This document shows, one piece after another, positions 1 to 62,519 of a stretch of 64,000 nucleotides of DNA. The stretch spans positions 32,517 to 96,516 of the forward strand of contig CAYXRA010000002.1 of NCBI GenBank assembly GCA_964467525.1, given 5' to 3'. The stretch is from an uncultured Calditrichaceae bacterium (GTDB lineage Bacteria > Calditrichota > Calditrichia > Calditrichales > Calditrichaceae). Below the pieces are notes generated by a model. That model did not search any database. It was not told where the DNA came from and worked only from the letters and a program-made list of their open reading frames with translations. Position 1 is the stretch's first letter, and every line of letters begins with the position of its first letter. A program made the translations under genes and the position numbers.

Positions 1-1622
1 AACAAATATACCTGACAGAAGCCGCTTCAATCGAAGTGGCTGCCTCTGAGGCGCCGCAAACACTCTCCACGGGGCAGACATTTCAGTACAGCCTGTCGGC
101 AAACCTGATCAGCGACCTGATCAATCCGGTGGCGCTGATCGAAACATCCGTGGGTTTGGGCGGGAATACGGTCAATATTCCACTGGATCAAAATAACGAA
201 GCCCAGTTGCAAATGTCTGTTCCTGCTCAATACAGCGGAACCGGCGCCGATACTATTCGCGCAATGCTCTACGGAACGGATGCCAACAGCGGCAAAACCG
301 TGACCGCCGCCGCGGTGGATGAAGAAATTGTAACGATTCAGAAAAAGGCCCGCTTAAGCTTGACCAATCCAAGGTTACTGCCCGATTTTGTTAACCGCTC
401 TAAGGAAATCTCACGCGGACAGGGCATCGAGGTCCGCGTGAAACCCGATTCCTCTGCAAAAACAGGCCCGCTGCCCTATGCAGCCATCACCGGTATCGGC
501 AGGGTTGCGCTCGATTCTTCGATAAAATCGCTGGGCTTCACCCTGGATGGCGGCGGTAGCTGGGAAAAATCATTTACCGGATACGGCCAGACGCTGAGCT
601 GGAAAATCAAAGCCCCGCGTGATACAAACGTGACGGTTAGTCTGAACCTGAAATTTACGCAGCTGCCGCTGGATGAAAATATCGGCGAACAAGCCGACAT
701 CGCCGCCGATTCCGGTATTGTTGGCATTCCGGTGCGGGTCAGACAGAAAACAGTTGAAGTGAATGTGCTCAATAATCTGATCACACAGAAACAGTTCAGC
801 AAGGGCGATCAAAACAGACCGCTTCTGGCCTTCAGAATTTCAAATGCTAATTACGATGAAAGTCTGAAAGTTAAAGGGGTGAACCTTGAATTCTTTACCA
901 GCACTGGTGCGCTGATTGAAGAGAATAAACTGAATTCCAAATCTCTGGTCAGTATGTTGAATACACTCAGCGTGGTGGATTACAGCGAAGCCGCATCGTT
1001 ACTTGCGAAACCAAAATCAGTTCGCAGTGTCGATGCATATATCGATTATCAGTTTACCGATACCACCGATAATCCGTTGTGGCTGAATTTCAGCGAAACG
1101 GCGGTAATTCCCGCGGGCGACATCGATACCATGGTAATCATTGCCGAATTTCAGGACAATGCGGTAAACCGTGGATTCCGGACCGTACTGCGAAATATTT
1201 TCGCTTATGACTACGATGAAAATACCGCCCTGGATATTATCGACAGCAGCGGTGTCAATATCACGCAGAGCGGGGCGTTTGAGTCGGAACCCTTAACTAT
1301 TGTTTCCGAAGATCCGGAAGACGCCTTTTACAATTATCCCAATCCCTTCGGCAGACAGTATCCCTCCACATGGATTAAATTCCGTCTCGAAAATCCTTCG
1401 GATGTGCAGATACGTATTTTTACCCTGTTAGGTGAGCTGGTCTGGAGTTGGGAAGGCAGCGACCTGCCCGGGGGTCTGTACGAAAATCTGGTACGCTGGG
1501 ACGGAAAGAATGATCGCGGTAATATTGTTTTAAACGGTGTTTATCTGGGCACCATCGATATTAAGCCGCAAAACGGTCAGTCGGCCAAAAGATATATAAC
1601 AAAGATCGCTTTCATAAAATAA
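1..1622 (+). CDS. Secreted protein with T9SS C-terminal sorting domain, 5'-truncated at the window edge
   Basis: The reading frame is open from nt 3 to the stop at 1620-1622, and the tracked start at 36 is only an internal GTG. The last ~90 aa (YPNPFGRQ...VQIRIFTLLGELVW...WDGKNDRGNIVLNGVYL...) fit the T9SS type-A / FlgD-Ig-like C-terminal domain pattern. I do not recognise the rest. Confidence 0.6.
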   Translation, partial: QIYLTEAASIEVAASEAPQTLSTGQTFQYSLSANLISDLINPVALIETSVGLGGNTVNIPLDQNNEAQLQMSVPAQYSGTGADTIRAMLYGTDANSGKTVTAAAVDEEIVTIQKKARLSLTNPRLLPDFVNRSKEISRGQGIEVRVKPDSSAKTGPLPYAAITGIGRVALDSSIKSLGFTLDGGGSWEKSFTGYGQTLSWKIKAPRDTNVTVSLNLKFTQLPLDENIGEQADIAADSGIVGIPVRVRQKTVEVNVLNNLITQKQFSKGDQNRPLLAFRISNANYDESLKVKGVNLEFFTSTGALIEENKLNSKSLVSMLNTLSVVDYSEAASLLAKPKSVRSVDAYIDYQFTDTTDNPLWLNFSETAVIPAGDIDTMVIIAEFQDNAVNRGFRTVLRNIFAYDYDENTALDIIDSSGVNITQSGAFESEPLTIVSEDPEDAFYNYPNPFGRQYPSTWIKFRLENPSDVQIRIFTLLGELVWSWEGSDLPGGLYENLVRWDGKNDRGNIVLNGVYLGTIDIKPQNGQSAKRYITKIAFIK

Positions 1623-1636
1623 ACGAGAGAATAATC

Positions 1637-3547
1637 ATGCGCAGTGATTTTATAAAAATAATTTGTCCGGCATTTTTAATAGTGCTGCTCGCCACGCAGA
1701 TGAATTATGCCGAAGAAGGTCAGGCCGGAACGGAAAGTAATATTAAAATGGGATTCGGCGCCAGAGCGCTTGGTCTGGGTCAGGCTTTTACGGCGATGGC
1801 CGATGATCCCACCGCCGTGTTCTGGAATCCGTCCGGTCTGGAATTTGTCCATCAGCAAAGCGTCACCTTCTTTCATACCACGCTTTTCGAGGGTACGATG
1901 TACGACTTTTTAGGTTATGCATATCCGACCTTAAACCTGGGTACCTTCGGAATCGGCGTCGGCAGGATAGGCACCGGCAATGTTACGCAGCGCGATATCC
2001 TGGGCAATGATTTGGGCAATTTTACTTTTGAGGAATACCACGGATTTTTTTCCTACGCCAAAAAACTGCCCTGGGATTTTACCGGCGGGCTTAGCGTTCG
2101 GGTAATCCGTCGCGGCTGGAACAGTTTGCAGGAAGAAGGCGATCTGGTCGATACGGGGGTGGGGCTGGATTTCGGTATGATGTACAAACCGCAAATCTTT
2201 ACCTCGGTGCTTTTGCGGGACTGGAGTTTCGGTCTGAGTCTGCGCAATTTATTTGCTCCGCAGGTTAATGAGGGCGAAGCTATTGATGAATTTCCGTTAA
2301 CAGTGCGTCTGGGCATTCTAAGAAAACTTTATCTGATGGGTGAAGGAAATCGGCTCAACTTTTTAATGGATTTCGATTATTCTGAAAAAAGAGATTTACT
2401 GCTTCATTTTGGTTTGGAATACCGTTTCAGGGAAATGGGCATGCTGCGCGCCGGTTTCGACGGCAAAGGATTAACCTTCGGCGCCGGTACGCAATACAGC
2501 ATTTTTCAGATTGATTATGCATTCGGAAGCAGTCCTTATGCTGATGTATTCTCATCGGTACACCGTTTTTCATTATCTGTGAATTTTGGCCGCAATCGTG
2601 ATGAGATGTTCGAAATTGTCGCCGCCGAACAAAAGGCTGAAGAAGAACGCATTATTGCCGAAATAAGAGAAGCAGACCGGCAGCGTTATATCGCTGAGCA
2701 TCTGAAGCAGGGAGAAGAATACTTTGAAGAAGAACGTTATCTGGATGCTATGGTTGAGTATCGTCAGGTATTATTGCAGGATGCCTACAACAACCGGGCC
2801 CGTGTGATGATCGATTCATCGGAAGCGCTCCTGCAGAAAGAATTCGACGAACGGCAGTCAAGCGCCGTACAGCAGGCTTTGGATAAAGATCGTGCCGAAA
2901 GTGACCGAGCGTTTGTAACAGAGCATTTTGAAAAAGGACGGAACTATCTGCAAAATAACCAGTTCACCGAGGCTTTGATAGAATTCAACATTGCCCTGGA
3001 ACGTGATCCGGATAATGAAACGATTATCAATGCCATTAATACCACCGAGCGCCGGATAAGTGAAGAAACGTCCAGACTTATCCAGCAGGGCAGAAGGGAA
3101 TTCCAGGCCGGTAATTATTCGGAGGCCTTGCGACTTTTAGGTGATGCTCGTATTTTAGGCGGTGACGACGCGGAGATTCAACGTGAAATAGCCACGCTCG
3201 CTGAGCGCATCAGGCTGACTGAAAATATTCAACGCGGTCTGGAATTGTTTGATATCGGTGAATTCCAGCAGGCGCTTTCCATCTTCGAAGAAGCTCTGAA
3301 TGTTGATCCGGATAACGAACTGGTTCGCCAGTATTACGAACGGGCAAAAATAGAAACTGCCGGCGACCAGGAAAAAATGAGTCCGGAAGCAGAGAAACGC
3401 TATTTACAGGGTGTGGATAAATTCTTGCTTGGCAAGTACGGAGAAGCTATTGAGATATGGGAAAAAATACTGCAGGATTACCCATATAATAAAAAAGTAC
3501 TGACCGCAATAAGAGGAGCCCGGGAGCGACTGAAAGGTCAAAAATAA
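1637..3547 (+). CDS. PorV/PorQ-like outer-membrane beta-barrel fused to a coiled-coil/TPR domain
   Basis: Hydrophobic N-terminal signal, then GARALGLGQAFTAMADDPTAVFWNPSGL, a motif I associate with PorV/PorQ-type barrels. About 300 aa follow with alternating beta-strand character. The C-terminal ~330 aa hold a charged coiled coil plus TPR-like repeats (NNQFTEALIEFNIALERDPDN, GEFQQALSIFEEALNVDPDN, GKYGEAIEIWEKIL). Starts 14 nt after the upstream gene. Confidence 0.55.
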   Translation: MRSDFIKIICPAFLIVLLATQMNYAEEGQAGTESNIKMGFGARALGLGQAFTAMADDPTAVFWNPSGLEFVHQQSVTFFHTTLFEGTMYDFLGYAYPTLNLGTFGIGVGRIGTGNVTQRDILGNDLGNFTFEEYHGFFSYAKKLPWDFTGGLSVRVIRRGWNSLQEEGDLVDTGVGLDFGMMYKPQIFTSVLLRDWSFGLSLRNLFAPQVNEGEAIDEFPLTVRLGILRKLYLMGEGNRLNFLMDFDYSEKRDLLLHFGLEYRFREMGMLRAGFDGKGLTFGAGTQYSIFQIDYAFGSSPYADVFSSVHRFSLSVNFGRNRDEMFEIVAAEQKAEEERIIAEIREADRQRYIAEHLKQGEEYFEEERYLDAMVEYRQVLLQDAYNNRARVMIDSSEALLQKEFDERQSSAVQQALDKDRAESDRAFVTEHFEKGRNYLQNNQFTEALIEFNIALERDPDNETIINAINTTERRISEETSRLIQQGRREFQAGNYSEALRLLGDARILGGDDAEIQREIATLAERIRLTENIQRGLELFDIGEFQQALSIFEEALNVDPDNELVRQYYERAKIETAGDQEKMSPEAEKRYLQGVDKFLLGKYGEAIEIWEKILQDYPYNKKVLTAIRGARERLKGQK

Positions 3548-3566
3548 TCAAACACGGACGAGTTAA

Positions 3567-6500
3567 ATGTTCAAAAATGTCAAAAAAGAAGAAATAACGA
3601 TTCCGGCACAGATGAGTTACCTCTTGCAGGTGCGCGAATTTATCGAGCACATCGGCAAAAAATACCGCTATGAAGACAAGCTGGTAAACTCATTCAAGCT
3701 GGTGATCGATGAGGCCTGTACCAATGTCATTCGTCATGGTTACCGCGATATCAAAAACGGTGAGATCACCATAAAAGCAATTATCCGCCGTCTCAGTCTG
3801 ACGATAATTATTGTCGACAAGGGAAAGAGTTATGATATACGTCAGGCCAACACGCCTGATCTGGCCAAATATGTGGATATCGGTAAACGGGGCGGACTGG
3901 GCATCCTAATGATGCGTAAGCTGATGGATGATATCCAGTATTCGGTTACCGAACGCGGCAATGAGATGCGCTTAACGAAATATCGCGAAAATTTGCGGGA
4001 ATCGGCCCTGATGCAGCGCTGGCAGTCGCTGAATATGCGCGTTAAATACTCGATTTTTGCATCGATCATTTTCACCCTCGTTTGTGTGATTATTTTCGCA
4101 CCGCTTTTTTTCAGCGTTAACAGCGATGTCCAGGATGAAGTGTTCAGAGCCACGGCCTCCGGAACGCGATCGCTTGCCGACAATGCGATCAATGACATGT
4201 TAAACGGTCTGGATTTTCTTTTATCCGAAAAATCCCGCTCGCTTAAAAATAACTATAAAAATATTATAGAAGAAGTTTACATTGTAGATGAAGACAGTGC
4301 AGTTATAGCTGTCGCTAATCCGGCAAAATATGATTCTCTTGGCCGGTATACGATCCCTGCGCGGGCGGCATTAGTCGATACCATTGGTCAGGTATCCATT
4401 TATAAATATCCCGTAAATGATTCGCTGGCCGTATTTGACCTGAGTACGGAGATCAGGGAAGACCTGATGGGCGGCGGCGATATTCTGGGGTATGTCCATG
4501 TCTGGATCGATCAACAGAAACTGACCGATCTGAGCAATAATAAAAAGATAAGCCTGGCCATTATTTTAACCGTTATACTGATCATTGGCTATTTAAGCGC
4601 TTTCTTCCTCATTCATCGAATCCTGATGCCTTTCCACAGTCTGGCCGACTGGGTTCGGCAGGTTGTGCGCGGCAAGGTCGATCAGGATGAAATCGACATC
4701 GATGCTTCCGACGAACTAGGTGAAATTGCCCAGGCCTTTAATGAAATGACCAATAAATTCCGCGAGGCGCAGGTTACTCTCGTGGAACAGGAAAAGCTTC
4801 AGAAAGAGCTGCAGGTTGCCCAGGAAATTCAGCAAATGCTGCTTCCCAGTGATTTTCCCCATGTAGAAGGTTATGAAATAGCTTCCTATTATGAGGCGGC
4901 CAAGGAGGTGGGCGGCGACCTGTTTGATTTTGTTGATGTCGATGAAGATACGATTGGTATTTGTGTGGCCGACGTTGCCGGTAAAGGCGTGCCCGGTTCG
5001 ATGATTATGACAATGATCCGTACGGCATTGCGCCTTGAATCCCGCGGGAATAAGAATCCGGCCGATGTACTGGCAAAGGTTAACCGCTTTGTTGCCGATG
5101 ATATGAAACGCGGTATGTTTGTTACCATGTTTTATCTTATCCTCGATTCACGCAACCGGATTATTCACTATGCCAGCGCCGGCCACAATCCTATGATCCT
5201 CTACCGCCGGTCGGCCAGGCAAACCTACTATTTGAATCCATCGGGATTTCCTGTAGGTATCCAGTTACCGGATCTGACGCTTTTTGACAGGAAAATCGAA
5301 ACCGATTCCATTCGCCTGCAGGAAGATGATATTTTAGTGCTTTATACCGACGGTATCACCGAGGCAATGAATATTGAAAGAGAGCTCTACCGCGAAGAAC
5401 GTTTCCTCGATGCCATTCGCGATAATGCGCACCTGGACGTCGGAGAGTTTGTCAAAAGCATTAACAGCGACATAAAAACATTCACCGGCGGGGCGCAGCA
5501 AAATGATGACATCACTTTTGTTTCAATCAAAGAAAAATTAATGCAGAGCGAAGTGATACTGCGCGTACATGAAAAACTGGTGAATATGATCGATAACGGT
5601 AAAACCGTTAAAGACGCACTGGAAGAATTACGCGTATCCCCGCATTTTTACTACAAACATAAAAATATTATCGACCGTAAGGGGATCGCCGGTTTAAAGC
5701 AGTATTTGGAAGAACAGGATTACATAGAAAAGAAACACCTGTCCATAGAGACCAAAGCAAAATTATTTGACATTATCCGCGAGCATCCGGACTATGGCCC
5801 GAAACGCATCTGTCATGAACTGCGCGGGGATAAATACGGCAATACCAAAATCGATGATAACCGCCTTTACAATGAACTGGTAAAAATGCGCCTGAATACC
5901 GAAGAACGACGTCGCAAATTTATTGAAAAAGGCGGAAAAAAGCGTCTGAAGCAACCGGGTACGCCGCTGCTGACACTGGATGGCCAGGTTATATTAAATT
6001 TTGAATCTGCGGAAAAACAGGTAAGCGGAGGTAAGAAAGACGAGGCCAACCAGCATTCCAAACAGATGCCGCCGCCTCCGAAACCGGATGAATCAAAACC
6101 GGTCAAAAAAGAAATTATTAAAAGTGCCGACAAACCGGAACCGGGTTTGGAAGCAGCAAGCGCTGATAAATCACCAGGTAAAATGATGCATAAACCGGCG
6201 CGTTATTTTGAATCCAAAGAGGAAGTTAAATCCGCCGATCAGCAACAGACGCTGCCCGAACCGGATAAGAAAAAATCAGAGAAAAAGAGACAGGCGCAGC
6301 CGGCTGCGGAGAAAAAGCAAATAAAAGAAAAAGAAACAAAAAAGGAAAAAGAGCCTGAAGTTGAAGCCGAAATAAGAAAAGCAACGCCGACTAAAGAAGA
6401 ACTCCTCGAACAAGTAAACGGCAGCATTGACCAGAAGAAAATCTCAAAATTCTTTTCACTCGTTGATGATGATTTGCAGGTAATTGTACAGAAAATCAGA

Positions 6501-6929
6501 AGTCTGCATCAGAGCGATCAGATCGGGCCGGACATAAAAAAAATTAATTTAATACTGAAAATTATCCTAAAACATCCGATGCTGAAAGAACTGGGATATA
6601 TAAAGCAGGTATTTGAGCAAGTTCAGGAGATTTTCGGCTTTATAGACTATCATATAGAAGAGATAGAACAGAAGGATATCTATGCAAATGTCAAAGATTT
6701 GTTGAATTATTTTGAAAAAGACAATAAATTAGGTAATTACAATAACTTGTTAGAGGCAATCAATCAGATCGGACTAATTAACAGAAAAATCCGGGCAAAA
6801 ATAAAACCCAAAGATTCAAAACAAGATGATAAAATATTAAAAATCCGGGAAAAGTTAGCCCAAAAGAAAGTAATTACAAAAAAAGAATTATTAGAATCGT
6901 TGTCAAAGGATAAAGAGGGCAGCGCCTGA
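3567..6929 (+). CDS. Fusion protein: RsbW/SpoIIAB-like Ser kinase, 2 TM with extracytoplasmic loop, HAMP, PP2C (SpoIIE/RsbU) phosphatase, HTH_21-like module, K/E/P-rich linker, helical C-terminal domain
   Basis: Kinase motifs: N-box DEACTNVIRHGY, G-boxes DKGKSYD and GGLGILMMRKLMD. TM segments YSIFASIIFTLVCVIIFAPLFF and ISLAIILTVILIIGYLSAFFLIH. HAMP-like SDELGEIAQAFNEMT. PP2C motifs EIQQMLLP, GGDLFDF, VADVAGKGVPGSMIM, YTDGITEA, NDDITFV. Then IIREHPDYGPKRICHELRG...LYNELVKMRLN. RBS-like GGACGAG lies upstream of the ATG. Confidence 0.8.
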   Translation: MFKNVKKEEITIPAQMSYLLQVREFIEHIGKKYRYEDKLVNSFKLVIDEACTNVIRHGYRDIKNGEITIKAIIRRLSLTIIIVDKGKSYDIRQANTPDLAKYVDIGKRGGLGILMMRKLMDDIQYSVTERGNEMRLTKYRENLRESALMQRWQSLNMRVKYSIFASIIFTLVCVIIFAPLFFSVNSDVQDEVFRATASGTRSLADNAINDMLNGLDFLLSEKSRSLKNNYKNIIEEVYIVDEDSAVIAVANPAKYDSLGRYTIPARAALVDTIGQVSIYKYPVNDSLAVFDLSTEIREDLMGGGDILGYVHVWIDQQKLTDLSNNKKISLAIILTVILIIGYLSAFFLIHRILMPFHSLADWVRQVVRGKVDQDEIDIDASDELGEIAQAFNEMTNKFREAQVTLVEQEKLQKELQVAQEIQQMLLPSDFPHVEGYEIASYYEAAKEVGGDLFDFVDVDEDTIGICVADVAGKGVPGSMIMTMIRTALRLESRGNKNPADVLAKVNRFVADDMKRGMFVTMFYLILDSRNRIIHYASAGHNPMILYRRSARQTYYLNPSGFPVGIQLPDLTLFDRKIETDSIRLQEDDILVLYTDGITEAMNIERELYREERFLDAIRDNAHLDVGEFVKSINSDIKTFTGGAQQNDDITFVSIKEKLMQSEVILRVHEKLVNMIDNGKTVKDALEELRVSPHFYYKHKNIIDRKGIAGLKQYLEEQDYIEKKHLSIETKAKLFDIIREHPDYGPKRICHELRGDKYGNTKIDDNRLYNELVKMRLNTEERRRKFIEKGGKKRLKQPGTPLLTLDGQVILNFESAEKQVSGGKKDEANQHSKQMPPPPKPDESKPVKKEIIKSADKPEPGLEAASADKSPGKMMHKPARYFESKEEVKSADQQQTLPEPDKKKSEKKRQAQPAAEKKQIKEKETKKEKEPEVEAEIRKATPTKEELLEQVNGSIDQKKISKFFSLVDDDLQVIVQKIRSLHQSDQIGPDIKKINLILKIILKHPMLKELGYIKQVFEQVQEIFGFIDYHIEEIEQKDIYANVKDLLNYFEKDNKLGNYNNLLEAINQIGLINRKIRAKIKPKDSKQDDKILKIREKLAQKKVITKKELLESLSKDKEGSA

Positions 6930-6958
6930 TTAATTGAATTCCTTTAAAGGAGGCTTGA

Positions 6959-7660
6959 ATGGAAGGAATACAGGTCTCAACCGAGATCGCCGGTAGCCGG
7001 AATCACATTTCAATCATTAAAGTTGGTGGGTACATCGATACAACCACCTCATCCGAACTCGAACGGGCTTTGGATTCACTGTTAAAGCAAGGTCGTTTCT
7101 ATATTATTATCGACCTGGGTAATGTCGACTATATCAGTAGCGCCGGCTGGGGTATTTTCATCAGTGAAATTAAGTCAATCCGGGAGAACGGCGGCGATTT
7201 AAAATTGGTACGCATGGTTCCCGATGTGTATGAGATTTTCGAATTACTGGAGTTTCATCATATTCTCGATGTCTACGATACGGTAGATGAAGCTATAAAT
7301 AAGTTTGAAATGCTTGAGGCAGCGGGAAAACCGGTGGCAAAAGAAATATCCCTGCCGAAAGCCGAGCCGGAACAGGAAACTACAGGTTCCGGGGAAAAAC
7401 AAGAACGTAAAGAAACCTCTGAAGCCGTTATCGCAGAAGAAGAAAAAGAACAGGTAAATCCGGCTGACCTGAGTCTCGATGAAAAACTGAGAATGATTAT
7501 TCGTGAAAATCCCTCCTATGGGGCGTTTAAAATTAAAAAAGAGCTCAATACAGCAAAGTACGGTTATACTAAAGTAGGCTGGTTTATCGTACGTTCCGAG
7601 CTTTCCAAGTTAAACCTGAATACCCGTGCACGCAGATACGAATATGCCACCTCGTTATAA
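6959..7660 (+). CDS. STAS-domain anti-sigma-antagonist-like protein (SpoIIAA/RsbV family) with acidic linker and C-terminal HTH_21-like module
   Basis: The STAS core includes VDYISSAGWGIF, with the candidate phospho-Ser in DYISSAG, and KLVRMVPDVYEIFELLEFHHIL. An E-rich linker follows, then IIRENPSYGAFKIKKELN...VRSELSKLNLN. Strong RBS AAAGGAGG lies upstream. Confidence 0.8.
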   Translation: MEGIQVSTEIAGSRNHISIIKVGGYIDTTTSSELERALDSLLKQGRFYIIIDLGNVDYISSAGWGIFISEIKSIRENGGDLKLVRMVPDVYEIFELLEFHHILDVYDTVDEAINKFEMLEAAGKPVAKEISLPKAEPEQETTGSGEKQERKETSEAVIAEEEKEQVNPADLSLDEKLRMIIRENPSYGAFKIKKELNTAKYGYTKVGWFIVRSELSKLNLNTRARRYEYATSL

Positions 7661-7674
7661 ACAGGGAGATCATT

Positions 7675-8175
7675 ATGCATACGGTTTTGGATATTGCATT
7701 GGTTTCAGTGCTCGTATTTTCCGTGTTTTCTAATTTTTATGGTTTTCCCGGTAATTTTCTCATCGCTCTCGGCAGTCTTTTCTATGGCGTTGGTACCGGC
7801 TTCCGTGAAATTACCGTTTCTTTTGTTATCATAATATTTTGCGTTGTGCTGTTCATCGAATTTGTTGAATTTCTGTTAATCGCATTTACAGCCAGGAAAT
7901 ACGGATCGTCAAAGTGGGGCATTTTCGGAGCGATATTCGGCGGGGTTATCGGTGCTATCGGCGGTACCTATTTTTCACCGTTGCTAGGCGTCATCATCGG
8001 TTCTTCAATCGGCGTTTTTCTCGGGGCGTTTATATTAGAGCTGATTAATAATTCTAATGTGAAACAAAGTCTGCTTTCAGGATTCGGTGCATTTCTGGGC
8101 AGAGTTGGGGGGCTTTCCATAAAGATGATCGGTGCGGTTACCATGGCAAGCATGATCTTATTGAGAATCATATAA
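7675..8175 (+). CDS. Small polytopic membrane protein, DUF456-like
   Basis: 166 aa with four hydrophobic Gly-rich segments. FYGFPGNFLIALGSLFYG near the N-terminus resembles DUF456 proteins as I recall them. It is the last gene of the operon, starting 14 nt after the STAS gene. Confidence 0.45.
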   Translation: MHTVLDIALVSVLVFSVFSNFYGFPGNFLIALGSLFYGVGTGFREITVSFVIIIFCVVLFIEFVEFLLIAFTARKYGSSKWGIFGAIFGGVIGAIGGTYFSPLLGVIIGSSIGVFLGAFILELINNSNVKQSLLSGFGAFLGRVGGLSIKMIGAVTMASMILLRII

Positions 8176-8204
8176 ATTGATTTCAAATAGTATTAAATTG
8201 TCTT

Positions 8205-8237
8205 CCCGAAATGATTCGTCATTCCGGGATTTTTTTT
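8205..8237 (+). terminator. Rho-independent terminator candidate closing the 1-8175 operon
   Basis: CCCGAAATGA-TTCG-TCATTCCGGG forms a 10-position stem with one mismatch, followed by a run of 8 T. Confidence 0.5.
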
Positions 8238-9118: not shown

Positions 9119-9122
9119 AACC

Positions 9123-21328: not shown

Positions 21329-21567
21329 GACATATTCCTCTTTGTGAAACTGGCTTAATATAGAAAAAATCGCCAAATATGCAAAATGGCGAATCCGGCT
21401 GTAATTTTAATTTCAGCATTGTTTATAAAAATAGAATCCGTATCGAATTAACTACAAAGATGGATTGATTACAAAAAATTCCAACTATTAGTATATTTAA
21501 AGGAAAAGATACATCAGGCTTTTAAATCGGGAATGGCGGATGGACGTATTTCTTTGAAATTTTAATG

Positions 21568-56975: not shown

Positions 56976-57304
56976 AATATCAGGATAATTAAATCATCAC
57001 CCTAAATCAATTGGCTTAAGTTTTAATTAAAAATCTCGAAAGTGGAAGAACGAAAAAATGTGATTATTCGGATAAAACCACATTGTTGTTTAATTAAATT
57101 AAGGATCATTAATTCGTGAAAAAAAATCAATTTTTGGGAATTTTATGACTTAAAGCACAATTTTGTATATGTTAATTATTTTATTTAACACAAAACGAAA
57201 ATATATAATAATGTCAAATATTTTAATGAAAAAATTTATATTTCCGATATTTTAAAAGGCAGCTTATTTAATAGAGGGATCGTTTGTTAGCCAGCATTGA
57301 TACA

Positions 57305-58267
57305 ATGGAAAAACAAGAATTGAAAAACACACTGATCGTCGGCTGGAATGTCGAGGCGGTTTCGCTTTACGATCGACTTCTGGATGCCCCTTATCTTGGC
57401 TATAACGTTCGTGGGTTTATCAAGCCGGCCGGCGTTGGAAAAAGTACGCATTACAAAAATGTTCCGGTCGTAGGAGATTTGTCTGATCTGGCGGAAGTCA
57501 GTAAAAGGCTTGAAATTGCCGAGATCCTGATTGTCCTTACGGACAATGAAAAAAAGTACCTGGCTGAAGTCATCCGTGAGTGTACTAAGTACAATATCGG
57601 ATATAAAGTTGTTGCGGATACCTATGATTCTCATTATGGACATGTTGTTCGTGATATTATCAGGGACGCCTGGAAACCACAGGAATTTGGCATTCGGCGG
57701 ATACTTGATGTGGTTGGCGCTTTAGTCTTGTTGATTTTGTTGTTTCCTTTATTTATAATCGTGGCAACGGCAATTAAGCTGGAATCGCACGGACCGGTAT
57801 TTTATTCCCAGCAACGATATGGAAAAGACGGAACCATATTCGCCGTACATAAATTTCGTTCAATGGTTCAGGATGCGGAAATGCGGTCTGGGCCAGTCTG
57901 GGCGACAAAATCAGATCCAAGAATTACGAGAGTAGGCCGTTTCATGCGCAAAACCCGTATCGATGAACTGCCACAGCTAATGAATGTGCTGAAAGGAGAT
58001 ATGAGTTTTATCGGACCGCGGCCGGAACGGCCCTTTTTTGCTGATAATTTTAAAAAACAGATACCCTTCTACATGAATCGCTTACGTGTGAAACCGGGCA
58101 TTTCTGGTTTGGCACAGGTTACTGTGGGGTATGATGAAACGCTTGAGGACGTTAAGGAGAAAGTTGCCCAGGATAATGCTTATATTGAGCAGAGAGATTC
58201 ATTAAAAATGAACCTGAAAATAATCTGGAAAACATTTGCCGTTCTATTAATGGGAGAAGGACAATAA
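57305..58267 (+). CDS. Polyprenyl-phosphate glycosyl-1-phosphate transferase (Bac_transf family, EPS priming enzyme)
   Basis: [47 protein letters not shown] and [10 protein letters not shown]. The N-terminus has a CoA-binding-like fold and a single TM segment. Confidence 0.85.
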
Positions 58268-58508
58268 TTTTTGTAAAGTTGATAAATTTAACTAAAAAAA
58301 TCCCAAAAAATGGCGAATCTAAATAATAAGATAAAGTGGACACTTTATCTGAAGCGTAGAAATTTTTTTAATTTAAAAAGCGTCTCACAAAAAATTACGC
58401 TGAAATACATGTCGGCCCGTAAGCTAAGCATGTAGACATTTAAGCTTGCAGTAAAACGCCATACTGTAATTAACGGGGCGGAGCTATAAAAAAAAGGCAA
58501 TATTTGAT

Positions 58509-59321
58509 ATGGAAAAAATAAAAATTGATTCTAAATTTGCTGATCAGAGTGGCGAGATAATGGTCGTTGAATTGGGCGGCCATGTGGATCAATCCAATAG
58601 TTATCAATTACAAAAAATGTTTGATAATATCATCCAGAGCGGCTGCTTTAAGGTGATTGTCGATTTTAATGATCTGTATTACATGAGCAGCGCCGGCTGG
58701 GGTATCTTCGTCGGTGAAATCAAAAGATTCCGTGAAAACGGCGGTGATATAAAACTGGCTAATATGAATCCGGAAATTTATGATGTTTATCAAATGCTTG
58801 AATTTTATCATATACTTGAAGATTATTCAGACGTGGAAAATGCCGCCGCTTCATTCAGAAAATCCGAAAGTGAACTGGATTTGGTACTTGACTCGGATGA
58901 CGATGAAGCAGTGCCAGATAATCTGAGTGATATTGAAGAAAGCACCGAGGAAATCGAGCTTGTCGATCCCCTGATGGAAGATACTTCAGATTACTCCGGG
59001 ACGGCTGACAGTGAAGACAATGAAGTAATAGATTTTAGTTCGGAAAAAACAACCGAATTTGATGCAAACAAAAAAGGACTAACAGAGTTTATTCCGCATA
59101 CGCTTACCACAGATGTAAAACTTGCCGATCTGCCTCTGGCTGAAAAAATAAAACGGGTTGTGGCGCAAAATCCACTGGTCGGTCTTTTTGGAATCAGAAA
59201 AGTTTTGAGACATGAACAATTCGGGAAAACTAAGGTAGGCGTTTTCCGCCTTATGAGATTACTGAGGGAACTGGACCTGCATACGAAGGAAAAAAGGTAT
59301 CGTTATTATCGTTCCTGCTAA
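58509..59321 (+). CDS. STAS-domain protein, paralogue of 6959-7660, with acidic linker and C-terminal HTH_21-like module
   Basis: The STAS core LYYMSSAGWGIFVGEIKRFRENGGDIKLANMNPEIYDVYQMLEFYHIL closely matches the 6959 protein. A D/E-rich linker of ~90 aa follows, then VVAQNPLVGLFGIRKVLRHEQFGKTKVGVFRLMRLLRELDLHTKEKRYRY. Confidence 0.75.
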   Translation: MEKIKIDSKFADQSGEIMVVELGGHVDQSNSYQLQKMFDNIIQSGCFKVIVDFNDLYYMSSAGWGIFVGEIKRFRENGGDIKLANMNPEIYDVYQMLEFYHILEDYSDVENAAASFRKSESELDLVLDSDDDEAVPDNLSDIEESTEEIELVDPLMEDTSDYSGTADSEDNEVIDFSSEKTTEFDANKKGLTEFIPHTLTTDVKLADLPLAEKIKRVVAQNPLVGLFGIRKVLRHEQFGKTKVGVFRLMRLLRELDLHTKEKRYRYYRSC

Positions 59322-59337
59322 TAATAAGGAATTGAAA

Positions 59338-60045
59338 ATGCATATAAACATTTTTATGAAATTAATAATCATAATGCTGATTTTTGTCTTCGCATCGATG
59401 ACATTTGCCCAGCAAAATAATTTTAACAGTGATGAGCTCGTCGGCGATCCGGACTTAGCGGTTTACCCGTTTAAACCCGGTGATGCGATTTTTATCAGTA
59501 ATTTACCGGACACCACCTCACTTCTGAATGGCATATTTGCAATTGATGATCGCGGTTTCGCTGAATTTCCCATGATAGGGAAAGCCAATGTCAGTAAAAT
59601 GACCAGAGATGAACTCATCGAATTTTTAAAAACCAGGCTTCGGGATCAACTGAAATATCCCAACCTGTATGTAAAGCCGGTGGTTCGGATTAGCCTGCTC
59701 GGCGGTTTCAGAAGACCGGGGTTATATTATGTCGATATAAACAGTTCACTCTGGGAAACCGTCAGACTTGCCGGTGGCACGATCATGGAAGAAGGTATTT
59801 ATGAGCTGCGCTGGGAGCGGAACGGTGACGAAAAATCAGATGAAGTAGTTAAATTTTTTGAAAGCGGGACTTCATTAAAAAGAATGGGTTTCAAATCCGG
59901 CGACCAGGTCTGGACGCCGTCACCGGATAGAGAAACATTCTGGGATAAGGTACGCGATATGATGCCTATTCTGACTTTCGCCACAACAGTGTTTGTTGTG
60001 TACAGTACCTATCAGCGCGATCAGGTTCTGCTAAATCGTTATTAA
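59338..60045 (+). CDS. Polysaccharide export protein (Wza/Poly_export plus SLBB-like)
   Basis: Signal peptide, PGDAIFISNLPD (a PGD...I motif as in the Poly_export domain), and a downstream beta-grasp-like GDQVWTP. Its position directly upstream of the Wzc-like gene also supports the call. ATG follows AAGGA. Confidence 0.55.
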   Translation: MHINIFMKLIIIMLIFVFASMTFAQQNNFNSDELVGDPDLAVYPFKPGDAIFISNLPDTTSLLNGIFAIDDRGFAEFPMIGKANVSKMTRDELIEFLKTRLRDQLKYPNLYVKPVVRISLLGGFRRPGLYYVDINSSLWETVRLAGGTIMEEGIYELRWERNGDEKSDEVVKFFESGTSLKRMGFKSGDQVWTPSPDRETFWDKVRDMMPILTFATTVFVVYSTYQRDQVLLNRY

Positions 60046-60064
60046 ATTTAAGGGATACTTTAAG

Positions 60065-62407
60065 ATGAAAGAAAATAGATCCAAAAGTTATTCTAGCTCT
60101 GAAAGCGGCTTTGATTTCGCCAAATATCTGAGATTGTTCAGACGAAAGAAATGGACAATTCTCACTATTTTTCTTATTGTGTTTGCTCTGTGGATGGCCT
60201 TTGCCATTAAATTCGGTCCCCGTCCCACCTACCAGGCTTATGCTTTATTACAACTGGAAGACCGGCGCGAATTATCGGCGACGACCATTGATTCCAGGGG
60301 CAGACCGCAGAACGAGGCTAAATTAGGTTTGCTGATGAGCCGTAACTTTCTGGGAAAAGTTGTAGACGAATTATCATTGCAAGTGCGCTTTAAAAATATG
60401 AACCGTTCCAGTGTAGTGGATACCGTTTTACTTGAGGACGAGTACATAAACGGAAGGTATCTGTTAAAAAAGGAAAAAGGTTATCTCCAGCTCTTTTATA
60501 CCAACCCCGAAGGAACGATCGAAAATAAACGGGTGCTTGAAGTCGTATTTCCCAAAGATAATTCCGTAGCCTATGATGGCTTCCGACTGGTGTTTAAGCC
60601 CGGTTTCTGGGATTATAATAAGGAACTTGAATTTGCCATTATCAAAAAAGCAGACGCCATCGAGGGCCTGCGTAACGCCCTGTCACCGAACTTTAGAAAC
60701 AGGGATCGCACCCTGCTTAATGTGACGATTGAAGGACCCGACCGCTTTTTTATTGCCAGGGTATTGAATGTATTGGTTGATGAGTTTGTAAAACAAAATT
60801 TAGATGTAAAAAAATACCGCACGCGGGAAGTACTCAACATCCTGACAGAACAGTTAAATACGGCTAAAAGAGATTTGGACAGGGCGGAAGAAGAGTTGAA
60901 AGAATTCCGCGAAAAATATCCCTGGGTTGGATTAACAGCAGACGCCAGTGGCGTTATTTCCGGGATGTCGACATACGAAGCGGAAAAGCGTACACTCGAA
61001 AATAACATCACCGAGCTCGATCTTTTAATATCACGCTATAATTCCAGTAACGAAAACGATAAATATCCCATTTTAAATGAAATTATTACCTTTCTTTCTG
61101 CTAAGGGGGTACCGACGGCAGCAGCGCTGGCTTCAGAGTTTGCTACGCTAACCAGCGAACGGTCCCGACTTTTGAACTCCTATGCCCCCACACACCAGGT
61201 CGTTAAAGAAAACGAGCGCAAATTGGCGGCATTGGAAGAAAAAGTATTATTGACCGCTGAAAATTATAAAAACCAGATCCGTGATAGAATAAAAGTTACC
61301 GAAAGCAAAATACAGGAAAGCAATTATAAAATCAGAAAACTTCCGGCACGGGAATTACAATTAGCCGAACTGCAGCGCAGCCGGTCCGTCGCAGATCAGA
61401 TCTATGAATCGCTGTTAGTCCGTTATAATCAGGCACAAATCGCCGATGCGGTTGAAGTAGGCGATATCATTATCCTCGATCCCGCCGTGGTGCCGCAATC
61501 GAGCAGTGAAATCAAAGTTCTGATTCGCAATGTGCTCATTGGAATTATTCTCGGACTGGGATTTGGCTTTGGATTTGTATTAATTTCAAACTTTCTCGAT
61601 AAAACAGTCCGTACCTCGGATGAGCTGGAAAAAATTATTCCGGTGCGTGTTCTGGCTAAAATTCCGGTAATCGGAGATGATAAGGACATAACCATCGAAA
61701 AAGTAGAAGACCGGGCGCGGATCGATCCAAAACTGGTTACCGCCGATTATTCACCGACCCCTGTCGGTGAAGCCTATCGTAGTTTGCGCACGCAGATTCT
61801 GTTCAATGACAGCGAACATAAGATTAAATCTTTTTTTATTACTTCGCTCAATCCGGGTGAAGGAAAATCGCTTAACGCCGGTAACATTGCGATTACCTTT
61901 GCCCAGCAGAAACTACCGACGCTAATTGTTGATGGCGATCTCCGTCGCGGGGTTTTGCACCACTCTTTTGCATGTAAAAAGAAACCGGGTTTATCGGATT
62001 TTTTGTACAGCAATGCCGATATTACCGATGAAAATATCCGCAAAATTATTCAGCAGACACATATTCCTAATCTGTATCTGCTCAGCAGCGGTATGCCCAT
62101 TCCCAATCCTTCGGAAATCCTGGGCAGTCAGCGCGGCCGTGATGTCATACAATTTTTAACGAAAAGATTTGGATTTGTGATTATAGATACGCCGCCGATT
62201 ATGGTAACTTCCGATGCTATCATCATTTCACAATATGTGGATAGCGGGCTGTTTGTGGTTCGTGCCGGAAAATCAAATGTTGATCAGATAAAAGATAAAA
62301 TTTCAGAATACAAAGATTTCTCGAAGAAATTATCCGGTATTCTTTTAAACTTTGCCAAACTGGATATAAAGAAGAGCGCCTATCGCTATTCATATTATAA
62401 CTATTAA
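60065..62407 (+). CDS. Wzc/GumC-like polysaccharide co-polymerase fused to BY-kinase (chain-length determinant plus tyrosine autokinase)
   Basis: N-terminal Wzz-like TM segment, a long periplasmic coiled coil and a second TM segment. The kinase part has Walker A SLNPGEGKS, Walker A' LIVDGDLRR, Walker B VIIDTPP and a C-terminal Tyr cluster (YRYSYYNY). Confidence 0.85.
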   Translation: MKENRSKSYSSSESGFDFAKYLRLFRRKKWTILTIFLIVFALWMAFAIKFGPRPTYQAYALLQLEDRRELSATTIDSRGRPQNEAKLGLLMSRNFLGKVVDELSLQVRFKNMNRSSVVDTVLLEDEYINGRYLLKKEKGYLQLFYTNPEGTIENKRVLEVVFPKDNSVAYDGFRLVFKPGFWDYNKELEFAIIKKADAIEGLRNALSPNFRNRDRTLLNVTIEGPDRFFIARVLNVLVDEFVKQNLDVKKYRTREVLNILTEQLNTAKRDLDRAEEELKEFREKYPWVGLTADASGVISGMSTYEAEKRTLENNITELDLLISRYNSSNENDKYPILNEIITFLSAKGVPTAAALASEFATLTSERSRLLNSYAPTHQVVKENERKLAALEEKVLLTAENYKNQIRDRIKVTESKIQESNYKIRKLPARELQLAELQRSRSVADQIYESLLVRYNQAQIADAVEVGDIIILDPAVVPQSSSEIKVLIRNVLIGIILGLGFGFGFVLISNFLDKTVRTSDELEKIIPVRVLAKIPVIGDDKDITIEKVEDRARIDPKLVTADYSPTPVGEAYRSLRTQILFNDSEHKIKSFFITSLNPGEGKSLNAGNIAITFAQQKLPTLIVDGDLRRGVLHHSFACKKKPGLSDFLYSNADITDENIRKIIQQTHIPNLYLLSSGMPIPNPSEILGSQRGRDVIQFLTKRFGFVIIDTPPIMVTSDAIIISQYVDSGLFVVRAGKSNVDQIKDKISEYKDFSKKLSGILLNFAKLDIKKSAYRYSYYNY

Positions 62408-62430
62408 AATCAAAATTCAAATTCGTTCTA

Positions 62431-62464: not shown

Positions 62465-62519
62465 TCCAATTTTTAATAAGTAATTCAAAGAAAAATCAAA
62501 TAACACATTTGTTGGTTAC

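Follow-up and report, generated by a model that had tools for sequence, protein, structure and literature searches.

A predicted membrane kinase/phosphatase and its STAS-HTH partners beside surface-protein and exopolysaccharide genes in the Calditrichota

Introduction

What does a partner-switching kinase and phosphatase control when no sigma factor is in view and its neighbors are envelope genes? The question is raised by five plus-strand genes, g1 to g5, at the 5′ end of a 64,000-nt stretch of DNA from an uncultured Calditrichaceae bacterium (the window). The reading offered here is computational: domain content, catalytic motifs, topology, a module shared by two of the proteins, and gene order were computed.

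Gene Layout and Envelope Proteins

The genes and the main features of the first two are as follows.

1..1622, +, g1, C-terminal ~540 aa of a giant surface protein (orthology; open at the window edge)
~1335-1619, +, g1 T9SS/FlgD_ig-like sorting domain, C-terminal ~95 aa (sub-threshold profile matches)
1637..3547, +, g2, outer-membrane protein with signal peptide, barrel and TPR (profile matches)
1745-2587, +, g2 PorV/PorQ-family beta-barrel, aa 37-317 (NF033709)
g2 aa ~350-620, +, C-terminal TPR domain (TPR_2, E 5e-16)
3567..6929, +, g3, 1120-aa bifunctional membrane sensor (domain and topology calls)
6959..7660, +, g4, STAS-HTH protein (STAS, 74.6 bits)
7675..8175, +, g5, DUF456 membrane protein, accessory (DUF456, 94 bits)
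8204-8237, +, intrinsic-terminator-like hairpin (8204-8229) plus T8, ending the five-gene unit

The gaps of 14, 19, 29 and 14 nt leave no room for promoters, and the promoter of the predicted operon lies upstream of the giant gene g1. The hairpin folds with -11.5 kcal/mol (z = -2.1), is directly followed by T8, and has a 274-nt gap downstream; an automated terminator scan did not include it among its listed sites. The coordinates, hairpin and T8 agree with the proposal of five closely spaced genes that share one terminator, and the domain scans matched HATPase_c_2, HAMP, SpoIIE, STAS, the PorV/PorQ family and DUF456.

As for g1, its frame has no stop codon from nt 3, so that it is open at the 5′ end of the window. 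Full-length orthologues have 4,659-4,930 aa, and g1 is 42% identical to an internal-to-C-terminal part of a 4710-aa Caldithrix abyssi protein; by orthology it is predicted to be the C-terminal tail of a protein of roughly 4,700 aa. What the initial annotation had described as the gene of a T9SS-sorted protein is thus present only as this tail. Its role as T9SS cargo is plausible, although the C-terminal domain scores below every curated cutoff: TIGR04183 gives 15.9 against 23 (E 0.01), CHU_C 20.9 against 27 (E 4e-4), and the matches to the C-termini of PorU, PorZ and an M6-like protein are likewise below cutoff. FlgD_ig is found in g1 orthologues.

The description of g2 as a PorV-like/TPR outer-membrane protein stands. 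It has a hydrophobic N-terminus and scores 152.6 with the PorV/PorQ family model NF033709 (cutoff 90), which KSB1-like and far-Calditrichota orthologues also pass, and it falls outside the PorV and PorQ equivalog models. The TPR repeats that follow the barrel are presumably periplasmic, and they match the TPR region of PorE weakly (E 3e-5).

A comparable pairing exists in SprB-SprF and PG1035-PorP-PorE: the gene of a giant repetitive surface protein, which has a T9SS C-terminal domain, adjoins that of a dedicated FadL-type 14-strand barrel of the PorV/PorP group, which anchors its cognate cargo, and the TPR-containing periplasmic PorE is part of the system (PMC9143113). Here too a giant surface protein adjoins a barrel, with TPR repeats weakly resembling PorE. 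However, g2 belongs to the PorV/PorQ family model, not with SprF/PorP, and fuses barrel and TPR in one protein; the g1 C-terminal domain is sub-threshold and looks type-A/FlgD_ig-like; and the Bacteroidota examples of that paper have no attached signaling genes.

A Kinase and a Phosphatase in One Membrane Protein

Along g3 the following parts can be distinguished.

aa 12-138, nt 3600-3980, +, RsbW-type kinase (HATPase_c_2, 85 bits)
aa 163-181, +, TM1 (hydropathy)
aa 182-330, nt 4110-4556, +, extracytoplasmic loop, ~150 aa (hydropathy)
aa 331-349, +, TM2 (hydropathy)
aa 347-397, +, HAMP (Pfam)
aa 460-655, nt 4944-5531, +, PP2C (SpoIIE, 170 bits)
aa 667-722, +, HTH1
aa 723-789, nt 5733-5933, +, HTH module (39% identical to the g4 module)
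aa 790-815, nt 5934-6011, +, conserved motif
after aa 815, before the helical bundle, +, disordered K/E/P linker
aa ~950-1085, +, helical bundle (AF2)

Domains and hydropathy agree with the original picture of a kinase, which lies N-terminal of TM1, and a PP2C phosphatase on one polypeptide, separated by the two-TM loop and HAMP. Among solved structures, RsbW (PDB 6m36) is the best match to the N-terminus. Might the catalytic residues be degenerate? Alignment finds them intact: the kinase has an N-box (EACTNVIRHGY), G1 (DKGKSYD) and G2 (GGLG), kept in 70/70 orthologous kinase regions on contigs covering the domain, and the PP2C motifs GGDLFD, ADVAGKG, AGHNP, YTDG and NDDIT are likewise kept wherever the contig covers that domain. 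In the AF2 model, pLDDT is ~90 across aa 656-790 and lies at 82-91 across aa 955-1080.

The domain order, at first thought undescribed, is already known. SypE of Vibrio fischeri has an N-terminal serine kinase, a central module and a C-terminal PP2C, and its STAS protein SypA is the downstream effector (PMC10120452). Like SypE, g3 places an RsbW-type kinase, a central regulatory module and a PP2C on one polypeptide that would act on a STAS protein. The central module differs, being REC in SypE and two TM segments, a periplasmic loop and HAMP in g3, which also has a long C-terminal extension (the HTH pair, the conserved motif, and a helical bundle or TPR). From TM2 to the PP2C, g3 follows the HAMP-coiled-coil-PP2C design described as general for PPM phosphatases (PMC12143880), and over aa 326-654 it can be aligned along the full length of the TM-HAMP-PP2C part of SiaA (NF038263 positions 306-655 of 658; PDB 6k4e), with a score of 67, far under the equivalog cutoff of 700. 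SiaABCD of Pseudomonas aeruginosa similarly uses a membrane PP2C sensor to control a biofilm pathway via a phospho-switch protein; there, however, the kinase is separate and the target of the switch protein is a diguanylate cyclase, which it activates, whereas no GGDEF gene occurs here. Rv1364c of Mycobacterium tuberculosis is also a multidomain fusion of PP2C and RsbW-like kinase, and its PP2C aligns with that of g3 (3ke6), but it is soluble, ordered PAS-PP2C-kinase-STAS with the substrate STAS fused in, and tied to SigF.

A STAS Protein with a Possible Output Domain of Its Own

The next gene encodes the presumptive substrate.

g4 aa 1-121, +, STAS domain (STAS profile)
nt 7139-7141, +, putative phospho-acceptor Ser61 (alignment to RsbV and SpoIIAA)
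g4 aa 125-165, +, acidic disordered linker
g4 aa 166-233, nt 7454-7657, +, basic HTH module (similarity to the g3 module)

The STAS match and the alignment of Ser61, within DYISSAG, with the phospho-serines of RsbV and SpoIIAA are consistent with that role. The AF2 model superimposes on SpoIIAA/RsbV (Foldseek TM 0.84-0.90, rmsd 1.6-1.7), and g4 scores 69 with the anti-sigma-antagonist superfamily model TIGR00377 (cutoff 53).

The claim that the operon has no classical output overlooked the C-terminal part of g4, which is 39% identical to aa 715-785 of g3 (E 3e-12). The STAS and kinase proteins share a basic module that appears to be a transposase-type HTH, HTH_21/HTH_32-like, an assignment that rests on sub-threshold single-sequence matches: HTH_21 matches were obtained for 11 of 26 members (best E 4.8e-5), and HTH_32 and Tc3_2 match too. 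A protein of five tandem modules reaches 82 bits with HTH_21 (cutoff 28), and HTH1 of one g3 orthologue clears the HTH_28 and HTH_23 cutoffs. Neither Foldseek nor a PDB profile search returned a significant structural match for the module. At 81/84 loci both g3 and g4 carry it, the other three being cut or split at one gene. With 336 matches among 1.84e9 cluster representatives, it is nearly restricted to STAS and g3-like proteins. One STAS-HTH relative (L164) sits apart from any g3-like gene. The modules have a pI of 9.6-10.6, whereas STAS domains and linkers are acidic (in g4, 9.85 against 4.6 for the STAS domain). Because the g3 copy is without the basic third helix and g3 resides in the membrane, at least this copy may not bind DNA.

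Is a sigma factor then needed? None was found by Pfam among the non-overlapping ORFs of at least 129 aa in the window, as the initial annotation had stated, nor in the 10 kb on either side of the cassette at four orthologous loci with annotation, nor among the scanned downstream genes of two KSB1-like loci. In classical switching the g3 kinase would be an anti-sigma for a factor encoded elsewhere, released by unphosphorylated g4. The kinase is indeed closest to RsbW and SpoIIAB, g4 is above the cutoff of the antagonist model, and the search in this genome covered the 64 kb of the window, which begins inside the giant gene. We nonetheless consider this very unlikely, given the negative searches, a kinase tethered to the membrane and fused to its antagonistic phosphatase, the downstream position of the STAS protein in SypE, and the effector-like domain of the STAS proteins. 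Folds, motifs and phospho-serine position are those of RsbU-RsbV-RsbW and SpoIIE-SpoIIAA-SpoIIAB; what differs is the fusion of kinase and phosphatase, their membrane embedding, the lack of a sigma factor in view and the additional effector-like domain of the STAS protein. Since this domain is DNA-binding-like, the pathway probably needs no sigma factor.

By analogy, g4 may be the output itself, like CapS, a STAS-wHTH repressor gated by serine phosphorylation without a sigma factor; CapK, a GHKL anti-sigma-type kinase with its own HTH, phosphorylates it (EMBO J 2026, PMC13373217). Both systems combine a STAS-HTH protein with an HTH-bearing kinase. However, CapS has a MarR-like winged helix as its HTH, while the putatively DNA-binding module here is of the transposase HTH_21/HTH_32 type, joined by an acidic disordered linker of 40-80 aa; g4 has no sequence-level match to STAS-HTH structures. 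CapK is soluble, ssDNA-activated and without a fused phosphatase, in contrast to the membrane-bound g3 with its PP2C, and CapK/CapS adjoin immune operons rather than envelope genes.

A Second STAS-HTH Protein in an Exopolysaccharide Operon

A paralogue of g4, STAS2, lies elsewhere in the window.

57284..62407, +, EPS genes around STAS2 (profile matches)
57284-58267, +, polyprenyl glycosylphosphotransferase (TIGR03025, 337 vs 295)
58464..58493, +, conserved 30-nt promoter-like element upstream of STAS2 (orthologue comparison)
58509..59321, +, STAS2, paralogous STAS-HTH protein, 270 aa (similarity to g4)
59115-59318, +, STAS2 HTH module
59332-60045, +, Wza-like exporter (Poly_export, 26.7 vs 28, sub-threshold)
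60065-62407, +, Wzc-like tyrosine autokinase (TIGR01007, 166 vs 108)

Along its full length STAS2 shares 32% identity with g4 (E 5e-50); it keeps the SSAG motif and is the first gene of a conserved wza/wzc-type EPS operon. In every long-enough locus (L085-L095; at L097 only the transferase was found) its orthologues are flanked by the EPS sugar transferase on one side and Wza/Wzc on the other, with no g3-like gene nearby; STAS2 is a probable second substrate of g3. The 30-nt element (-35 yTGTAA and -10 TAAATA, separated by an invariant, G+C-rich spacer of 17 nt) occurs upstream of the nine closer STAS2 orthologues; the 2.16 Mb of fetched loci contain no other copy.

The location of STAS2 recalls SypA, whose STAS gene is also inside an exopolysaccharide locus and likewise involves no sigma factor. 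Could the output then be nontranscriptional? Unphosphorylated STAS domains of g4 and STAS2 would bind envelope or polysaccharide-assembly proteins, and their modules would dock on or tether to the g3 copy, giving kinase/phosphatase specificity or membrane recruitment with no DNA binding. This alternative is possible, but we rate it as less likely than a transcriptional output. SypA acts on a protein target in an EPS pathway, an Anabaena STAS domain controls an EPS glycosyltransferase, and STAS2 has the initiating sugar transferase and Wza/Wzc as its immediate neighbors; a module in enzyme and substrates alike suits homotypic interaction, the g3 copy has no basic third helix, and the extreme STAS conservation suggests several protein partners. 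Against it, the module is strongly basic and of a transposase HTH family, CapK and CapS both bear an HTH and yet CapS binds DNA, and canonical STAS-kinase recognition requires no extra docking domain. SypA also differs in that g4 and STAS2 carry the C-terminal module, and in that a giant surface protein and a PorV-like barrel go with the cassette here, in Calditrichota and KSB1 rather than Vibrio.

Conservation of the Cassette

The order g1-g2-g3-g4 is kept in all sufficiently long loci (84 genome and about 24 metagenome loci) across Calditrichota and KSB1-like genomes. The proposed five-gene block is therefore conserved in its first four members: g5 is a real gene, but it is missing from many Calditrichota loci and, L077 apart, from all 11 informative KSB1-like loci, and is dispensable and outside the conserved core.

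Might g3-g4 be an independent signaling pair that inherited its place after g1-g2 with no functional coupling? Calditrichota synteny extends far past the cassette (DUF4159, DUF4175, patatin-Omp85, MutY), so that the order could be inertia. We regard this as unlikely: in KSB1-like genomes icd/obg/dprA/gltX (obg/dprA in L079) replaces the downstream block while g1-g4 stay intact and co-directional, no cassette without g2 was found wherever the contig permitted the test, and the short gaps have no promoter room. The link to envelope genes hence exceeds local coincidence.

Identity to near-Calditrichota, far-Calditrichota and KSB1-like orthologues is highest for the STAS domain (94/83/75%), followed by PP2C (84/70/65%) and kinase (83/71/54%), which fits a role of the STAS domain as the hub of the signaling. 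The sensor loop is the least conserved element (34/25%/undetectable), as expected of a ligand-binding domain.

Proposed Mechanism and Outlook

The explanation we favor, in which we place about even confidence, is that a signal-controlled PP2C opposes the kinase fused to it, with STAS-HTH regulators as their common substrates and a coupling to exopolysaccharide and a surface adhesin. From these data we infer which substrates g3 acts on, what kind of signal it receives, DNA binding, the target genes and the output step. As an inner-membrane STAS-serine kinase/phosphatase, g3 would phosphorylate Ser61 of g4, and probably the equivalent serine of STAS2, with its N-terminal domain, and its more C-terminal PP2C would remove the phosphate. 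The extracytoplasmic loop would sense an envelope cue, and TM2, HAMP and a coiled coil would relay it in turn to the dimeric PP2C, a route already suggested for other HAMP-PPM phosphatases. How far STAS is phosphorylated would then depend on the balance of the two opposed activities. Most likely the cue is connected with g1-g2, always encoded just upstream: g1 would usually be a giant surface protein with a T9SS-like C-terminal domain, g2 its dedicated barrel, and the periplasmic TPR domain of g2 could reach the sensor loop.

The HTH module shared by g3 and g4, the second STAS-HTH paralogue in an EPS operon and the giant size of g1 had gone unnoticed in the first reading of the sequence. Instead of releasing a sigma factor, the STAS proteins would themselves be the effectors through their basic modules; g4 and STAS2 are most probably phosphorylation-gated DNA-binding regulators, CapS-like, of the genes for the surface protein and the exopolysaccharide.

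Gene order and conservation of the cassette

The five genes at the start of the window are all read from the forward strand and are arranged as follows.

..1622, forward strand, g1, the tail of a giant surface protein
1637-3547, forward strand, g2, a PorV-like/TPR protein
3567-6929, forward strand, g3, a kinase/phosphatase of 1120 aa
6959-7660, forward strand, g4, a STAS-HTH protein of 233 aa
7675-8175, forward strand, g5, a DUF456 membrane protein (Pfam)

The initial annotation described these as closely packed genes ending at one terminator, and both points are borne out. The gaps from g1 to g5 are 14, 19, 29 and 14 nt, and the last gene is followed by a hairpin at 8204-8229 with an eight-T run (-11.5 kcal/mol, z = -2.1 vs shuffles), then by an A+T-rich gap of 274 nt before the next gene. 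This hairpin was not among the predictions of a dedicated terminator scan of the window. Rfam gave no match over the entire window, and a search of three intergenic regions for operator-like inverted repeats returned A+T-rich chance pairs alone. Reading back through g1, no stop codon is encountered as far as nt 3, so the gene is truncated by the window edge.

How widely is this arrangement kept? With each GTDB species represented by a single genome, a scan found 206 relatives of g4, and the best 80 of these 206 were retained. The close homologues are all from Calditrichota, including the cultured Caldithrix abyssi DSM 13497 at 66% identity. In tblastn searches with the window proteins, the g1 tail, g2, g3 and g4 are co-directional in every sufficiently long locus, and g2-g3-g4 occur in about 24 additional metagenome loci; because of this, the concern that the block might be peculiar to one genome can be dismissed. 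Complete genomes with the cassette include that of C. abyssi (CM001402.1, around 882-906 kb), OZ254086.1 and OZ245730.1. The genes around the cassette are shared between C. abyssi and three further long contigs, in this order: giant protein, PorV-TPR, kinase/phosphatase, STAS, DUF456 (sometimes missing), DUF4159, DUF4175, patatin-POTRA-Omp85, and MutY. As for the downstream part, the DUF4159-DUF4175 pair (8450-12527) is the direct 3' neighbour of the cassette in almost every Calditrichota locus (in locus L038 the distance is 5.6 kb), and in relatives patatin-POTRA-Omp85 and MutY come next; the pair is absent from the KSB1-like loci.

These KSB1-like loci form the deepest group (L073-L084, L077 apart), with g4 51-57% identical; several of the genomes bear the label candidate division KSB1, a group assigned by NCBI to Candidatus Zhuqueibacterota within the FCB group. 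The genes downstream are different here, namely icd, obg, dprA, gltX and dnaX in L083 and obg and dprA in L079, and the four-gene core is retained, so that its order is kept across Calditrichota and KSB1-like genomes alike. That the core persists despite the replaced downstream genes argues, at the level of sequence comparison, for retention owed to function and not merely to inherited order. Of the five-gene block first proposed, g1-g4 are thus conserved; DUF456 is missing from many Calditrichota and from all these KSB1-like loci, and for this reason is considered accessory.

Table. Conservation (identity) of cassette elements in near Calditrichota, far Calditrichota and KSB1-like loci
g4 STAS domain (6959-7333, aa 1-125): near 94% (median), far 83%, KSB1-like 75%
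g3 kinase: near 83%, far 71%, KSB1-like 54%
g3 PP2C: near 84%, far 70%, KSB1-like 65%
g3 HAMP: near 84%, far 77%, KSB1-like 54%
g3 extracytoplasmic loop: near 34%, far 25%, KSB1-like undetectable
g3 motif aa 790-815: near 83%, far 72%, KSB1-like 67%

The best-kept element is the STAS domain of g4, nearly invariant across Calditrichota and above the kinase and PP2C domains of its presumed modifier, and the least kept is the extracytoplasmic loop of g3. This pattern is the one expected if STAS were a signalling hub, the loop a lineage-tuned sensor, and the catalytic domains constrained.

Kinase and phosphatase domains on one membrane protein

The domains recognized in g3 are these.

aa 12-138, HATPase_c_2 kinase domain (Pfam, 85 bits)
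aa 163-181 and 331-349, two TM helices around a loop of ~150 aa (hydropathy)
aa 347-397, HAMP (Pfam)
aa 460-655, SpoIIE/PP2C (Pfam, 170 bits)

The nearest kin of the N-terminus is RsbW (PDB 6m36; NCBIfam RsbW E 9e-22). The kinase boxes of this GHKL Ser kinase, as required for partner switching, are N = EACTNVIRHGY, G1 = DKGKSYD and G2 = GGLG; EACTN..H, DxG and GGLG are visible in the alignment with RsbW (6m36), and the N, G1 and G2 motifs are retained in 70/70 orthologues covering the domain. The second activity, a PP2C (PPM) phosphatase, contains the metal-binding Asp motifs, reading GGDLFD, ADVAGKG, AGHNP, YTDG and NDDIT. An alignment of 43 sequences shows the kinase and PP2C motifs, GGDxFD, DVxGKG, TDG and NDD among them, at 90% conservation or more. 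The possibility that one of the two domains is degenerate was checked, and it does not hold, because the motifs are conserved to this extent and the kinase and PP2C signatures are found in all orthologous loci whose contig spans the domain. The membrane sensor placed between the domains by the initial annotation was recovered as well; a PDB search with its loop gave no match.

Is this domain order new, as was first suggested? It is not: an N-terminal Ser kinase, a regulatory domain and a C-terminal PP2C on a single chain are already known from SypE of Vibrio fischeri (PMC10120452). The two proteins differ in the centre, which is a REC receiver in SypE; in g3 no Response_reg match was obtained there, and the sensor and HAMP (aa 163-397) with the two TM helices are found instead. 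The TM-HAMP-PP2C half of g3 also aligns end to end with SiaA, of the SiaABCD system, far below the equivalog cutoff.

The region after the phosphatase is more variable. Foldseek against the PDB with aa 656-1120 gave a best E of 0.58, which is not significant, and a weak TnsB match. An HPt identity was considered for the C-terminal helical bundle, which has only a weak CheA-P1/HPt-like topology (Foldseek); it was rejected because the His is not 90% conserved and is followed by Pro. In the KSB1-like orthologues, of 1458-1481 aa (L083 5542-9918, L079 5299-9744), TPR repeats replace the bundle, and the far-Calditrichota orthologues, of ~870 aa, have neither. A short motif at aa 790-815 (5934-6011), KKRLKQPGTPLLTLDGQVILNFES, is better kept than the HTH module that it directly follows; AF2 models it, with low confidence, as two short strands.

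The putative STAS substrate and a transposase-type module

The protein next to g3 had been named as its presumptive substrate; it is confirmed as a STAS protein (STAS 74.6 bits; TIGR00377 69 vs 53) and remains the candidate for that role. The AF2 model of its STAS domain superposes on SpoIIAA/RsbV with a TM of 0.84-0.90, and the putative phospho-acceptor Ser61, where helix 2 begins, aligns to the phospho-Ser of RsbV and SpoIIAA. This residue is invariant across 29 aligned sequences and present in 84/84 loci.

The initial annotation held that no classical output was present. As regards a sigma factor within the 64 kb this is correct, but an effector-like module on g4 itself was overlooked. Past the STAS domain, g4 continues with an acidic disordered linker of ~40 aa and then a basic module of 68 aa (pI 9.85), predicted as four helices (pLDDT 79-85) and not as a winged helix. 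g3 has a copy of this module (aa 723-789; 39% identity, E 3e-12), preceded by another HTH, HTH1, at aa 667-722. Both copies are present in 81/84 loci, including the KSB1-like ones; the remaining 3 are cut or split at one gene.

To which family does this module belong? The g3 segment aa 671-784 resembles the N-terminal DNA-binding region of IS481 transposases (NCBIfam, E 7.5e-6), and HTH1 of a shorter g3 orthologue scores above the HTH_28 and HTH_23 cutoffs. Among 26 module sequences, matches are to HTH_21 (11), HTH_32 (7) and HTH_Tnp_Tc3_2 (4), each singly below cutoff; a metagenomic protein with five tandem modules, P0250, reaches 82 bits with HTH_21, for which the cutoff is 28. When the modules of the window were searched on their own, Pfam gave no match at E <= 0.01, and the best hit of a PDB profile search, the DNA-binding domain of the Sleeping Beauty transposase, was not significant (E 0.93). 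The HTH assignment is a family-level one, partly sub-threshold.

A profile of the three window copies gave 336 matches among 1.84 billion cluster representatives. Those examined are STAS-plus-module or g3-like proteins, with the exception of two consisting of tandem HTHs only and three without a Pfam match. P0250 and P0292 are metagenomic proteins built solely from tandem HTH repeats, the latter with nine to ten IS630-type units (HTH_Tnp_IS630, 225 bits).

The pairing of g3 with a STAS-HTH protein is not universal, since around one relative, 50% identical to g4 (L164 10001-13987), the 10 kb to each side contain no g3-like gene. This relative adjoins an M1-family peptidase; the idea that this neighbour was a divergent g3 was ruled out by that identity.

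A second STAS-HTH protein in an exopolysaccharide operon

A paralogue of g4 missed on first reading, STAS2, lies at 58509-59321 and is 32% identical to g4 along its whole length (E 5e-50). STAS2 opens an operon, followed by a gene for a Wza-like exporter and one for a Wzc-like tyrosine autokinase (wider region 57284-63551), and an initiating polyprenyl glycosylphosphotransferase is directly upstream of the operon. The placement is the same in all orthologue metagenome loci that are long enough (L085-L095), down to 43% identity; at the most distant orthologue (L097, 41%) the transferase alone was found. No g3-like gene occurs near the STAS2 orthologues in the loci examined. In front of the gene is a further feature.

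58464-58493, forward strand, conserved promoter-like element of 30 nt, lying 16-45 nt before the start codon of STAS2

Its consensus is yTGTAAyTGACnnrGCGGAGCTryAwAw, with an invariant G+C-rich spacer. The element precedes the 9 closer STAS2 orthologues and is absent from the remainder of the 2.16 Mb of fetched loci.

The surface genes

g2 has a signal peptide, a PorV/PorQ-family barrel and a C-terminal TPR domain. Its description as a PorV-like/TPR outer-membrane protein is upheld by NF033709 (152.6 vs a cutoff of 90; 133.5 for the KSB1-like and 110.5 for the far-Calditrichota orthologue), and it stays below the equivalogs for PorV (NF033710, 61.5 vs 250) and PorQ (NF033711, 74.7 vs 220).

That g1 is a T9SS cargo is a claim that stands in part: a sorting-domain-like match is found at the extreme C-terminus, but it scores below the TIGR04183 cutoff (15.9 vs 23). 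The same end matches, also sub-threshold, the C-termini of PorU, PorZ and an M6-like protein, and the g1 orthologues carry FlgD_ig. The organism appears to use T9SS-type sorting domains, because the C-terminal domain of a small FG-GAP repeat protein at 13057-13932 passes TIGR04183 (33.2 vs 23). A word-indexed protein search with g1 returned contig-end fragments alone. Judging from the orthologues' neighbourhood, g1 as seen in the window is the C-terminal ~540 aa of such a protein of giant size, exposed at the surface. Full-length orthologues have 4,659-4,930 aa, with Big_1 and other Ig-like matches, and in L004 the gene is split into several called genes; the KSB1-like g1 has only ~1,100 aa. 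Where g1 is giant, the 10-kb flanks stop within it; where it has the shorter KSB1-like form, they end ~60 nt ahead of it. SprB-SprF and PG1035-PorP-PorE (PMC9143113) offer parallels for a giant surface protein encoded beside its own FadL-type barrel.

Other genes in the window include a surface protein of 1562 aa (41295-45983) with 11 He_PIG and 10 Big_9/cadherin-like repeats; in the C-terminal third it resembles the same part of myxosortase-dependent M36 peptidases (NF038112, 294 bits, below cutoff). On the reverse strand, sucrose synthase and a sucrose-phosphate synthase/phosphatase fusion are adjacent genes (16786-21376), and they are adjoined by a gene (14349-16724) for a fusion of an amino-acid permease with two Usp domains.

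Partner switching and the sigma factor

Sigma-free partner-switching modules, such as SypE/SypA, SiaABCD, HsbR/HsbA and CapK/CapS, are a growing and poorly understood class, and to our knowledge the effector step is unknown in most of them. Does the present system belong here? Pfam on all non-overlapping ORFs of at least 129 aa confirmed that the 64 kb hold no sigma factor, the only regulators being an AraC-type protein and ArgR, and the annotated regions flanking the cassette at four orthologous loci show no sigma-factor domain either. A sigma factor immediately upstream of the window had been mentioned as a possible objection; the next ~12 kb are, by orthology, the giant gene, and the stretch checked ends there. 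Classical switching through a sigma factor encoded elsewhere in the genome finds little support in the sequence covered. A STAS Ser, a GHKL kinase and a PP2C phosphatase are all present, and the system is one that, to judge from its sequence, works like partner switching and is sigma-independent.

Proposed mechanism

Computation, on which everything here rests, shows which parts are present, how they lie in the membrane, that the active sites are intact and that the gene order is conserved; the mechanism itself is inferred. g3 would be a membrane-embedded kinase/phosphatase acting on Ser61 of g4, and probably on STAS2 too. Its loop would perceive an envelope cue, and HAMP and a coiled coil would then control a PP2C dimer; regulation of PPM phosphatases by HAMP, REC or PAS inputs has been proposed in general (PMC12143880). 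The N-terminal kinase, which precedes TM1, may be constitutive, so that net phosphorylation would track phosphatase activity. The cue is probably tied to g1 and g2, and the periplasmic TPR of g2 seems well placed to touch the g3 loop.

As for the output, CapS offers the favored model. It is a STAS-HTH protein that binds DNA and is turned off when an HTH-bearing anti-sigma-type kinase phosphorylates its Ser (PMC13373217). The substrate architecture of g4 parallels it, with a STAS domain followed by a putative DNA-binding module, but the HTH of CapS is of another type and unrelated in sequence to the g4 module. The main rival is a protein-protein output like that of SypA, in which the module would be a docking domain; it has precedents in SypA itself (PMC10120452) and in the STAS-glycosyltransferase case of Anabaena. 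With g4 as a phosphorylation-gated DNA binder, the favored reading, a complete trans-envelope feedback can be imagined, although it is rather unlikely in all its details: the TPR of g2 would report loading or display of the giant cargo to the g3 loop, and g3 would set the phosphorylation of a family of STAS-HTH transcription factors, carrying a domesticated transposase DNA-binding domain, that co-regulate the adhesin and wza/wzc operons.

Outlook

Overall, the arrangement first noted is confirmed, and the reading first given to it is upheld in part. A literature search found no publication on T9SS in Calditrichota or on the present domain architecture. As far as this search shows, several points are apparently new: the domain combination, the transposase-type module common to g3 and its putative substrates, an operon shared with a PorV-family/TPR barrel and giant cargo, the probable second substrate in an EPS operon, and the occurrence in two FCB-group lineages.

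The cassette fuses a likely effector, the DNA-binding-like module, to the STAS substrate; the likely input, an outer-membrane carrier with its giant cargo, shares the operon with g3-g4; and STAS2 marks exopolysaccharide export as the probable target pathway. Calditrichota are abundant in marine sediments, and the predictions are testable in C. abyssi DSM 13497, a cultured strain in which the cassette is complete. Three points that had not been noticed at first make the system easier to test: the effector-like domain on the substrate, the probable second substrate with its target pathway, and this cultured host. If confirmed, the predictions would tie gene regulation to T9SS-type surface display and reveal a transposase HTH re-used in signalling. 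The trans-envelope circuit, if true, would be a sigma-independent route from a secretion-system carrier to transcription, across two phyla of the FCB group.
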